64,000 nucleotides of DNA, from assembly GCF_988243305.1 (NCBI RefSeq), contig NZ_OZ547136.1. One strand, written 5' to 3'. Below, piece after piece: positions 583-49,290 of the stretch (the first letter of the stretch is position 1; the number at the start of each line of letters is the position of its first letter). The notes beneath the pieces are model-generated. The model made no database searches. It worked only from the letters and a program-made list of their open reading frames with translations, and was not told the DNA's origin. Made by a program: the position numbers and the translations under genes.

Positions 583-771
583 CAGGGACATCCTTTTATC
601 ATCGGGAATACGAAAGAAAAGGGAGAATAAACGCCTTACTTATAGAACAGTGAAGAATGCCACAATTTTACGCTTTGAAAATGATGACACTATCACAGTT
701 GGCGCATTCATTAACGATAGGGTATAAGTAAAACAATAAGTTAACACCGCTCACAGAGACGAGGTGGAGAA

Positions 772-1512
772 ATGTTAGATCAAGTATGCCAGCTTGCACG
801 GAATGCAGGCGATGCCATTATGCAGGTCTACGACGGGACGAAACCGATGGACGTCGTCAGCAAAGCGGACAATTCTCCGGTAACGGCAGCGGATATTGCC
901 GCTCACACCGTTATCATGGACGGTTTACGTACGCTGACACCGGATATTCCGGTCCTTTCTGAAGAAGATCCTCCCGGTTGGGAAGTCCGTCAGCACTGGC
1001 AGCGTTACTGGCTGGTAGACCCGCTGGATGGTACTAAAGAGTTTATTAAACGTAATGGCGAATTCACCGTTAACATTGCGCTCATTGACCATGGCAAACC
1101 GATTTTAGGTGTGGTGTATGCGCCGGTAATGAACATAATGTACAGCGCGGCAGAAGGCAAGGCCTGGAAAGAAGAGTGCGGTGTGCGCAAGCAGATTCAG
1201 GTCCGCGATGCGCGCCCGCCGCTGGTGGTTATCAGCCGTTCCCATGCAGATGCGGAGCTGAAAGAGTATCTGCAACAGCTTGGCGAACATCAGACCACGT
1301 CCATCGGCTCTTCGCTGAAATTCTGCCTGGTGGCGGAAGGGCAGGCGCAGCTGTACCCGCGCTTCGGACCAACGAATATTTGGGATACCGCCGCTGGTCA
1401 TGCTGTGGCTGCAGCTGCCGGAGCGCACGTTCATGACTGGCAGGGTAAACCGCTGGATTACACTCCGCGCGAGTCGTTCCTGAATCCGGGATTCAGAGTG
1501 TCTATTTATTAA
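772..1512 (+). CDS. cysQ: 3'(2'),5'-bisphosphate nucleotidase
   Basis: 246-aa [25 protein letters not shown]... with inositol-monophosphatase family motifs (WLVDPLDGT). Confidence 0.95.
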
Positions 1513-2059
1513 TTAATTTATGCAGCAGGTCCATCACTTGCTGCACCTCTTCCTGTGTGAGCGCCCCGTCTTTGGCCCATTGCACGCGACCATCCTTATC
1601 CAGCACCACTACAGCGGAACTTTCTTCATCCAGCTGCCAGGCACCGCGCGCGACGCCATTGCTATCGACAATAAACTGCGACCAGGGATAAAGCTTTTTA
1701 TTACTCTCCAGACTGCTGCGCACAAACATCCCTGAACCCGGAATCGCGTCGTCGGTGTTAACAATGGTGGTGGTCTGGTAGCGATCGTGCGGTAACTTCG
1801 CTGATTTAATCGCTTCAATCAGCGTCGCGTTTTTCTCTTTTGCAGAGGTGCGACCAGCAATATGTTGCAGTACTCGCACTTTTCCCACTAACTGTGCGCT
1901 GTTCCAGGTTTTGTAGCTAAACTGATCTTTATCAAGCACCAACTCGCCTCGATCGGTAATGCCAATCGGCGGCACTCGCTGACCGGTTTCGAACTGATGT
2001 GCGGAAGCCATCATCGGCAACAGCAGGCAGGTGAGTGCCAGAATCTTGCGTAGGGTCAT
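1502..2059 (-). CDS. ytfJ: periplasmic protein YtfJ
   Basis: 185-aa ORF with N-terminal signal peptide ([20 protein letters not shown]); converges on cysQ with an 11-bp overlap. Confidence 0.9.
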
Positions 2060-2383: not shown

Positions 2384-2590
2384 ATGAAAATTTTCCAACG
2401 GTACAACCCACTTCAGGTGGCGAAGTACGTAAAGATCCTGTTCCGTGGACGGTTATACATCAAGGACGTTGGCGCTTTTGAATTTGATAAGGGTAAGATT
2501 CTTATCCCAAAAGTGAAGGATAAGCTGCATTTGTCAGTGATGTCCGAAGTTAACCGTCAGGTTATGCGTCTGCAAACAGAGATGGCTTAA
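2384..2590 (+). CDS. ytfK: small protein YtfK (68 aa)
   Basis: Internal ATG at 2384 preceded by AGGAGA RBS; product [38 protein letters not shown]... The upstream 22 codons of the track ORF are probably not translated. Confidence 0.85.
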
Positions 2591-2651: not shown

Positions 2652-3995
2652 TTACGCGACGCTTTCTTCTTTATCTTTAGCGTCAGGCAGTTTTGGCGAA
2701 AGGGCGGTGGCCTTGCTGTCGATCCGGGTCACCAGCAGCTGGTCGATGCGGTAGTTATCGATATCCACCACTTCAAATTTGTAGCCGGCGAATTTCACCG
2801 AATCGGTGCGTTTCGGGATCTTACGCAGCATAAACATCATAAAGCCGCCGATGGTTTCGTAGTTGCCCGACTGCGGGAACTCGTCAATATCCAGCACGCG
2901 CATGACGTCGTCAATTGGGGTGCCGCCGTCAATCAGCCATGAGTTCTCATCACGGGCGACAATCTGCTCTTCCAGCCCCTGACCGACTAGATCGCCCATC
3001 AGCGTGGTCATCACGTCATTGAGGGTGATGATCCCCACCACCAGCGCGTACTCGTTCATGATCACCGCGAAGTCTTCACCTGCGGTTTTAAAACTTTCCA
3101 ACGCCTCTGAAAGGGTTAACGTATCCGGCACAATCAGCGTGTTGCGAATTTGTACGCCGCTGTTCAGTGCCAGGCTTTGGTTAGCCAGCACGCGGTTCAG
3201 CAGGTCTTTAGAATCGACATAGCCGATGATGTGGTCAATATCTTCATTACAGACGAGGAACTTAGAGTGCGGATGTTCCGCCACCTTATTCTTCAGGCTT
3301 TGCTCATCTTCGTGGAGATCAAACCAAATCACGTTTTCACGCGGTGTCATTGACGACGGAACGGTACGGGATTCCAGCTCAAAGACGTTTTCAATCAGCT
3401 CGTGTTCCTGTTTACGTAACACGCCCGCCAGCGCACCGGCTTCCACTACCGCGTAGATGTCATCAGAAGTGATGTCATCTTTACGTACCATTGGCAGTTT
3501 GAAAATACGGAAGATTATGTTCGCCAGTCCGTTGAAGAACCACACCAGCGGGGTGCAAACGTACAGGCAGAAGCGCATCGGGTTGATGATACGCAAAGCG
3601 ACAGCTTCTGGTGCAATCATACCGATGCGTTTCGGGGTTAAATCCGCAAACAGGATAAACATGCCAGTCACTAACGAGAAAGAGAGAATAAAGCTCAGTT
3701 GCTCAGAGAGCTCTGCCGACATATAGCGGGAGAACAGGCTGTGAAAAGCTGGAGAAAATGCCGCATCACCGACGATACCGCCGAGAATCGCCACTGCGTT
3801 CAGACCGATTTGGACCACGGTAAAGAACATGCCGGGATTTTCCTGCATATTCAGAACGCGTTGGGCATTTATATTGCCTTCATCAGCCAGCAGTTTAAGT
3901 TTGATTTTGCGTGAGGCGGCAAGTGAGATCTCGGACATCGAGAAGAACGCACTTACAGCGATCAAGCAGAGTATGACTAAAATACTGTTTAACAT
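2652..3995 (-). CDS. ytfL: inner-membrane CNNM/CorC-family protein (DUF21-CBS-CorC), YtfL/PaeA
   Basis: 447-aa ORF with hydrophobic N-terminal domain followed by CBS/CorC-like region; position between ytfK and msrA. Confidence 0.9.
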   Translation of the reverse strand: MLNSILVILCLIAVSAFFSMSEISLAASRKIKLKLLADEGNINAQRVLNMQENPGMFFTVVQIGLNAVAILGGIVGDAAFSPAFHSLFSRYMSAELSEQLSFILSFSLVTGMFILFADLTPKRIGMIAPEAVALRIINPMRFCLYVCTPLVWFFNGLANIIFRIFKLPMVRKDDITSDDIYAVVEAGALAGVLRKQEHELIENVFELESRTVPSSMTPRENVIWFDLHEDEQSLKNKVAEHPHSKFLVCNEDIDHIIGYVDSKDLLNRVLANQSLALNSGVQIRNTLIVPDTLTLSEALESFKTAGEDFAVIMNEYALVVGIITLNDVMTTLMGDLVGQGLEEQIVARDENSWLIDGGTPIDDVMRVLDIDEFPQSGNYETIGGFMMFMLRKIPKRTDSVKFAGYKFEVVDIDNYRIDQLLVTRIDSKATALSPKLPDAKDKEESVA

Positions 3996-4194
3996 ATCTT
4001 ATCCGACCTTTCAGGCCAGATCCTCGGAAGGGGAAGTTGATTAATTTGTGTGAAATACACATTGAAAGCCGATTCGAAGAAAGTGAACCGGCATTTTCAG
4101 TGGCTAGTATAGCGTAAGGTACTGTAAAGTCGCCAGAGGGTTAAAATTCAGACTGCTGATAAATGCAATACTGCCTGATGCGCTATGCCAATCA

Positions 4195-5420
<1,226 letters not shown>

Positions 5421-5421
5421 C

Positions 5422-5480
<59 letters not shown>

Positions 5481-5596
5481 GCAGTCCTTGCAATATATTG
5501 AATTTGGACGATTTTGTAGGCCTGGTAAGGCGTTTACGCCGCATCTGGCATAAATAAAGCGCACTTTATCAACAATCTACATTTGTACCCGTAACG

Positions 5597-6235
5597 CTAT
5601 GCTTCCGGTGGCAGACAGACGCCAATTCCGCCAATTCCACAGTAACCATACGGGTTTTTATGCAGATATTGCTGGTGGTCATCTTCGGCATAATAAAACG
5701 GTGTGGCGTTAGCGATTTCCGTGGTGATGTGACGATCATCATCGGCGGCAAGCATCGCCGCCTGAAAACGTTCCAGACTGGCGCGAGCTGCGGCATCCTG
5801 TTCTGGGGTCAGCGGATAAATCGCTGAACGATACTGCGTGCCGTGGTCATTGCCCTGACGCATTCCCTGGGCGGGATCGTGATTCTCCCAAAATACCTGT
5901 AGCAACTGCTCATAGCTGATGACGGAAGGATCGTAAACAATGCGTACCGCTTCGGCATGACCCGTATCACCGGAGCACACTTCCCGATAAGTCGGATTTG
6001 GCGTATAGCCTCCGGTATAGCCTGCGGCGGTGCTGTAAACGCCGGGTAACTGCCAGAACAGACGCTCCACACCCCAGAAACAACCCATCGCAAAAATGGC
6101 AATCTCCATTCCGTCAGGTACATTGGTCATTGAGTGACCGTTGACCGCATGCAGCGTGGCTACGGGCATCGGGGTGTTACGTCCAGGCAGGGCATCGGCG
6201 GGGGAAACCAGATGCTTTTTATCAAATAAACTCAT
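5597..6235 (-). CDS. msrA: peptide methionine sulfoxide reductase A
   Basis: 212-aa product from internal start [12 protein letters not shown]... with GCFWG active-site motif; the track ORF is N-terminally over-extended. Confidence 0.93.
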
Positions 6236-14480: not shown

Positions 14481-14580
14481 GCCTGATGCCGATTCGTAGG
14501 CCGGATAAGGCGCTCGCGCCGCATCCGGCGGTGGTGCGCTGAAGCCTGATGCGACGCTTACCGCGTCTTATCATGCCTAC
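14481..14580. repeat. REP/BIME element cluster
   Basis: GCCTGATGCG...TAGGCCGGATAAGGCG...CGCATCCGGC palindromic units between ytfQ and ytfR. Confidence 0.85.
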
Positions 14581-20715: not shown

Positions 20716-20838
20716 CCTCAGCCTGATATAGTGTGCGTAGGCCGGATAAGGCGTTCACGCCGCATCCGGCATTTGAGCATAGTGCCTGATGCGACGCTTG
20801 ATGCGTCTTATCAGGCCTACAGGTGCACCGCATCCGGC
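20716..20838. repeat. REP/BIME element cluster
   Basis: Alternating REP palindromes (TAGGCCGGATAAGGCG / GCCTGATGCGACGC) between mpl and yjgA. Confidence 0.85.
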
Positions 20839-47449: not shown

Positions 47450-47770
<321 letters not shown>

Positions 47771-47775
47771 CGCAA

Positions 47776-49290
<1,515 letters not shown>

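Follow-up and report, generated by a model that had tools for sequence, protein, structure and literature searches.

The DNA analysed here is one contiguous stretch of 64 kb from E. coli (hereafter the window), in the first 4 kb of which cysQ and ytfJ converge tail to tail, with cpdB on one side of the pair and ytfK and paeA on the other. The features of this part of the window, some taken from the open reading frame list and others read from the sequence, are the following:

up to near 591, minus strand: cpdB, its 5' part
772-1512, plus strand: cysQ, 246 aa, 3'(2'),5'-bisphosphate nucleotidase, stop codon TAA at 1510-1512
1502-2059, minus strand: ytfJ, 185 aa, YtfJ-family protein ending in ...HKLINK, stop codon TAG (cta on the plus strand) at 1502-1504
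1502-1512, both strands: tail-to-tail overlap of cysQ and ytfJ, 11 bp
1513-1516, no strand: insertion point of ytfI, unoccupied, 4 bases (ttaa) where K-12 carries 1,225 bp, as placed by BLAST breakpoints
2384-2590, plus strand: ytfK
2652-3995, minus strand: paeA/ytfL

The CysQ protein of the window matches the Pfam family PF00459 over residues 5-233 (176.7 bits against a cut-off of 27, E 8.8e-52) and is 99% identical in amino acids to CysQ of K-12 (b4214) over 246 aa. Its neighbours are also those of K-12, with cpdB upstream and ytfJ-ytfK-paeA downstream, and RefSeq names the gene likewise in a strain identical to the window. Orthology suggests that the enzyme would act on pAp/PAPS. YtfJ, which begins with a signal-peptide-like stretch, matches both PF09695 (259 bits, cut-off 24, E 1.6e-77) and TIGR01626 (306.8 bits, cut-off 151.1, profile positions 1-183 of 184), and the gene is also found in the RefSeq annotation of strain 214-4. 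On these sequence matches the identities of cysQ and ytfJ can both be regarded as secure. A scan of the window against Rfam also revealed a match to the ES239 sRNA at 583-705 on the plus strand (154.5 bits, gathering score 62), located in the divergent intergenic region between cpdB and cysQ and overlapping the start of cpdB. The further matches were to the STnc450 sRNA, four naRNA4 (REP-derived) copies, a Magnesium-II riboswitch aptamer, Ysr276 and one tRNA (coordinates 4057-4114 on the minus strand, 14499-14577, 20740-20817, 30867-30982, 47530-47701, 48535-48729 and 59742-59823), all of them unrelated to the cysQ/ytfJ junction.

The initial annotation had described cysQ and ytfJ as convergent genes sharing 11 bp, with the stop codon of cysQ inside the 3' end of the minus-strand ytfJ. 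This arrangement and the coordinates of the two stops are borne out, both by direct reading of the sequence and by PGAP, which calls an identical 11-bp overlap in strain 214-4 (100% identity with the window over 1,951 bp) and the same overlap in three more strains. The stop codon of ytfJ is the reverse complement of bases within Ser-Ile codons of cysQ. As stop codons set both ends of the overlap, its extent is independent of the choice of start codon. Because the two convergent ends overlap there is no intergenic DNA and no room for a gene, and the earlier statement that no separate gene lies here likewise stands: no open reading frame of at least 20 aa is present at the junction other than antisense frames inside cysQ and ytfJ, and the Rfam scan detected no RNA family at this position.

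The gene order is different in K-12. In MG1655 cysQ ends at 4437495 and ytfJ at 4438708, and between them lies ytfI (b4215, 4437707-4438645) on the cysQ strand. The direct convergence seen in the window is therefore not shared by K-12, and the outcome that the initial annotation had named as refuting its reading did not occur when the interval was aligned to MG1655. Its low-confidence suggestion that K-12 carries an extra small open reading frame named ytfI between the two genes was right as to the presence of the gene and wrong as to its size, as ytfI comprises 939 bp and encodes 312 aa. In the alignment, window positions 700-1512 and 1517-2613 flank a K-12 segment of 1,225 bp (locus L001, 5497-6721), and the counterpart of window 1517 onward starts at L001 6722, leaving four window bases opposite the whole segment. 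AT-rich, repetitive sequence leaves the breakpoint at 1513-1516 uncertain by a few bases. DNA homologous to the K-12 segment is absent from the junction and from the rest of the window, and searches by tblastn and blastn found no ytfI-like sequence in the entire 64 kb. Going beyond the initial annotation, the indel also alters the 3' end of ytfJ: the K-12 protein has 184 aa and ends in ...LLQKLLK, and that of the window has 185 aa and ends in ...LLHKLINK. A second, separate length difference is located beyond ytfK, whose stop at 2590 is followed in the window by one copy of AAAGTGCTATGCAGTAA (2593-2609) and then by a hairpin that forms a bidirectional terminator (2613-2637). In K-12 this 17-bp unit is duplicated in tandem, and E. 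coli genomes include strains of either form.

In order to determine which of the two forms prevails, the frequency of each was recorded in 5,426 complete E. coli genomes, all but six of which (5,420) contain the cysQ-ytfJ-ytfK region. A 116-bp probe centred on the window junction found the contiguous, empty junction in 3,794 genomes, and the 1,225-bp K-12 segment was found in 1,623, so that the two classes account for approximately all genomes, about 70% being empty and 30% occupied. All empty-site E. coli strains that were sampled have identical bases at the junction. The ytfI segment has a median of one place per genome, and all inspected loci lie between cysQ and ytfJ. The window thus carries the majority form at the cysQ/ytfJ junction; its form is not the unusual one, and K-12 represents a minority, derived insertion state. 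The same counts dispose of the idea that the lack of ytfI in the window is an artefact of assembly or of open reading frame calling. Nothing was found in favour of this explanation, and it is already refuted by the identical or near-identical contiguous junctions in the 3,794 complete genomes, by the agreement of independent PGAP coordinates and by the stop codons that define both ends of the overlap.

The K-12 segment, here referred to as the cassette, has a GC content of 34.6% overall (27-40% in 300-bp windows), compared to 50-59% in its flanks. Its sole long open reading frame is ytfI, and it contains a hairpin just past the cysQ stop (-21.4 kcal/mol, z -5.4) and a second one between ytfI and ytfJ that can fold on either strand (about -15 to -17 kcal/mol, z -3.0). 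YtfI has no match in Pfam or NCBIfam, and its homologues form 17 clusters among 5.8 billion proteins, all from Escherichia or Shigella and reaching down to 69% identity. An AlphaFold2 model built on a 7-sequence alignment (mean pLDDT 51, pTM 0.36) was too poor for a fold search. A PADLOC match of YtfI to Cas6b was dismissed as meaningless, being a fragment with an E-value of 8e-4 and 17 bits and having no stretch that passes. Searches of the K-12 cassette with Pfam, NCBIfam and PADLOC revealed no transposase, integrase or recombinase. The polymorphism itself has been documented previously: Higashi et al. (2016, PLoS Genet; PMC4720273, S10 Fig) identified ytfI as a K-12 insertion absent from strains SE11 and SE15, and reported that H-NS binds the ytfI segment and extends from it over cpdB, cysQ, ytfJ and ytfK, which it does only in strains that have the insertion (PMC4720273). 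In an over-expression screen of the ASKA library, ytfI was among the clones conferring HOCl resistance and was called uncharacterised (PMC8228696).

To polarize the two states, one genome per species was scanned for YtfJ relatives, and 80 of 269 relatives were kept as representatives of Enterobacteriaceae species. The stop codons of cysQ and ytfJ overlap in 74 of the 80, Enterobacter being among the outgroups with an overlap of 11, 7 or 4 bp, and the representatives are distributed as follows:

11-bp overlap: 40 of the 80, comprising Citrobacter, Salmonella enterica subsp. arizonae, Klebsiella, Raoultella, some Kosakonia and three Escherichia species
7-bp overlap: 28 of the 80
4-bp overlap: 6 of the 80
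extra DNA between cysQ and ytfJ: 6 of the 80

Base for base, the junction of the window is colinear with those of the outgroups, and it has the same frame and the same TAG stop. Since the stops overlap in 74 of the 80 species representatives, the overlapping arrangement is ancestral for the family, and the window shares this empty ancestral state. Together with the 3,794 contiguous junctions in E. coli, these counts show that the overlap is no accident of this one sequence. Such wide conservation might also be taken to mean that the overlap has a function, with convergent transcription of cysQ and ytfJ leading to mutual antisense regulation, and with the hairpins of the ytfI cassette abolishing this coupling. 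In line with such a reading, no convincing intrinsic terminator is present on either strand at the window junction, where the scan gave weak candidates only (among them a weak 7-bp hairpin at 1480-1496) and folding gave z values of +0.69 and -1.69 with no hairpin of note, while the cassette brings strong hairpins at both of its ends. However, the length of the overlap varies by genus, several species tolerate insertions at this position, and in the roughly 30% of E. coli that have the cassette, cysQ is unharmed and ytfJ is changed in its last residues only. Compactness alone is a sufficient explanation of the overlap, and coupling of the two genes is considered highly improbable.

The age of the cassette is relevant to how the window came to lack it. 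A ytfI variant with 69% amino-acid identity is located in the same place in one of the species representatives, strain SCPM-O-B-8794 (L008). This strain is labelled E. coli, but the identity of its flanks to the window is only about 90%, and it is therefore assigned to a cryptic Escherichia clade. Between K-12 and this strain, dS amounts to 0.70 for ytfI and 0.66 for cysQ. For a second ytfI variant, of 78% identity and with flanks about 96% identical to the window, the values are 0.37 for ytfI and 0.20 for cysQ. On these values the cassette has diverged together with its flanks, and it is older than the separation of E. coli from one or more of the cryptic clades. The cassette is accordingly an old resident polymorphism of the genus rather than a recent acquisition by K-12. 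The dN/dS ratio of ytfI (0.12-0.37, compared to 0.01-0.04 for cysQ) shows that the gene is under some purifying selection. Eroded or altered copies are also found: ytfI carries a frameshift in strain ESY002 (L089) and an IS1 insertion in strain 2900 (H68), and in APEC O78:H4 (L090) it has a shorter form of 303 aa, annotated as a hypothetical protein. In E. coli ETEC1738 (L002, 2501-3794; H80) an IS1 element is located 164 bp into the cassette and the remainder is deleted into ytfJ, which is truncated. Two sequences initially considered as intermediate alleles were discarded, H80 because its retention of only the first 164 bp of the cassette is explained by this IS1-associated deletion, and H79 (93.7% identity) because it is a frameshift-ridden assembly.

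An old cassette that decays in several strains raises the possibility that the compact junction is secondary, the lineage of the window having once carried ytfI and lost it by deletion. Both the co-divergence of the cassette with its flanks in a clade roughly 10% divergent and the decay of ytfI in ESY002, strain 2900 and ETEC1738 are in agreement with such a loss, as are the 2-4 clustered bases, located directly at the junction, that set the empty allele of E. coli apart from those of other Escherichia. A deletion would, however, have to be base-exact, restoring the 11-bp overlap, the frame, an ancestral-type YtfJ tail and the TAG stop, as found in 40 other species, and the need to restore these features exactly makes a local deletion unlikely. 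The sole deletion observed, that of ETEC1738, is untidy and truncates ytfJ, and by-eye reading indicates that the observed junction is not what a simple loss of the DNA between the short terminal repeats of the cassette would produce. A swap to the empty allele by recombination is possible, yet this constitutes allele exchange and not deletion. Loss by deletion is thus judged improbable, and the preferred explanation remains that the window retains the ancestral, unoccupied state. The related notion that the empty E. coli junction (TTAATTAAT) is an excision scar was also rejected as less parsimonious, as the junction has the exact ancestral length and frame and is approximately three substitutions from the nearest empty allele (E69), and as additional bases would stay behind if the cassette were lost by deletion between its end repeats. 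The ytfJ tail of the occupied alleles (...GTTGCTC...) is nearer to the deep-ancestral sequence than is that of the E. coli empty allele (...TTAATT...), a pattern which would also fit a more complex history.

The ends of the cassette were compared between variants for traces of the insertion process. In L008 the two ends (4057-4068 and 5279-5290) form a perfect 12-nt inverted repeat (ATTAATTCCATA / TATGGAATTAAT), of which K-12 retains only 7 of 8 bases, according to by-eye reading of the junction sequences. The repeat in L008 may be a relic of mobilisation or a split palindromic target. The comparison of the junctions gave no clean target-site duplication, the candidates being short, AT-rich and imperfect, and it gave no terminal inverted repeats conserved across the cassette variants in these short AT-rich junctions. 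With regard to the features of a mobile element, the K-12 cassette is devoid of a transposase or integrase and, in the genomes and loci inspected, is neither typically multi-copy nor found at multiple locations.

Inserts other than ytfI occupy the same junction in further species of the family:

Escherichia albertii NBRC 107761 (L010), 4056-5559: 1,504 bp, 33% GC, encoding a 385-aa pentapeptide-repeat protein
Citrobacter youngae ATCC 29220 (L046), 4059-6178: 2,120 bp, encoding a TIGR04222 membrane protein with a Cys/Gly/Ser-rich tail and a radical-SAM/SPASM enzyme
two Kluyvera species (L063, L064), about 4056-4960: about 905 bp, with an S11-type peptidase gene
K. intermedia (L071), 4056-4126: 71 bp, a hairpin only

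The E. albertii protein weakly resembles effectors of the PipB2/SopA type in their repeat regions and has no homology to YtfI by BLASTP (E 0.62), and no DNA similarity was found among the inserts of different genera. The C. youngae insert is flanked by a repeat of roughly 35-40 bp of the ytfJ 3' end, as read by eye. Counting ytfI of E. coli, the pentapeptide-repeat gene of E. albertii, the TIGR04222 and radical-SAM/SPASM genes of C. youngae and the S11 peptidase gene of Kluyvera, at least four unrelated cargoes have entered this junction, and in all four insertions the last ytfJ codons are replaced, cysQ is preserved and a recombinase is lacking. This recurrence might indicate an insertion hotspot of the Enterobacteriaceae, served by a targeted insertion route that has so far escaped recognition, although we regard this as rather unlikely; the recurrence could simply mean that a convergent junction is a harmless landing place. 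If a hotspot does exist, the route would be aimed at an AT-rich, terminator-less junction, and the insertions would not reflect chance at a harmless site. The unrelated inserts in other genera constitute a minor lead on the landing sites of small foreign cassettes.

Taken together, the cysQ/ytfJ junction is polymorphic for the presence of the cassette, which was inserted there in part of Escherichia, and the allele of the window is very probably the ancestral one, in which the site is empty. The superimposed ends of cysQ and ytfJ are the norm in Enterobacteriaceae. In the proposed course of events, an AT-rich cassette of 1.2 kb, with ytfI as its single orphan gene (on the strand of cysQ) and strong hairpins at both ends, would have entered ytfJ within its final few codons in some members of the genus. 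The insertion would have spared cysQ and provided ytfJ with a new five-residue tail and a stop codon of its own. Homologous recombination in the core genes on either side has probably maintained or reshuffled the resulting old polymorphism, and the lineage of the window may never have contained the cassette or may have regained the empty allele by recombination. The boundaries, composition, frequencies, outgroup polarity and co-divergence on which this scheme draws derive from the present comparisons, and H-NS binding is taken from the literature; the foreign origin of the cassette, its insertion route and its mode of spread we infer.

The cysQ/ytfJ overlap of the window is consequently an ordinary, ancestral and majority allele at a site where the polymorphism was already documented. 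No gene is missing from the window, and the finding matters little beyond correct annotation, apart from the reminder that gene order in E. coli at large cannot simply be read off from K-12. The locus as such is a published and clean example of a small AT-rich insertion that nucleates H-NS binding over adjacent core genes, and the empty allele offers a natural control for experiments on H-NS nucleation.

Compared to the ytfI segment as described by Higashi et al. (2016), the locus and the polymorphism are the same, and the window corresponds to the empty site of the SE11/SE15 type. Their work differs in encompassing three strains and in its focus on H-NS binding. The present analysis places the boundaries to the base and shows the altered end of YtfJ, and it adds counts over 5,426 genomes, a polarity drawn from outgroups and evidence on how old the cassette is. 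The K-12 allele also resembles the small, AT-rich, horizontally acquired islets of enterobacterial chromosomes that carry orphan genes and are silenced by H-NS. Like these it is low in GC, occurs in some strains and not in others, contains one orphan gene, is reported to bind H-NS and lies between convergent core genes, at a site where no promoter is disrupted. It differs from such islets in lacking an integrase, a transposase, a tRNA target and clear direct repeats, and in having diverged together with its flanks in cryptic Escherichia, which points to an old resident and not to a recent gain. The empty junction, in turn, is similar to other convergent overlapping gene pairs, as the 3' ends are shared, the stop of either gene is embedded in sense codons of its partner, and related genera have kept the arrangement. 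Set against these pairs there is nothing unusual about the window, where the overlap is short and any regulatory effect only putative.
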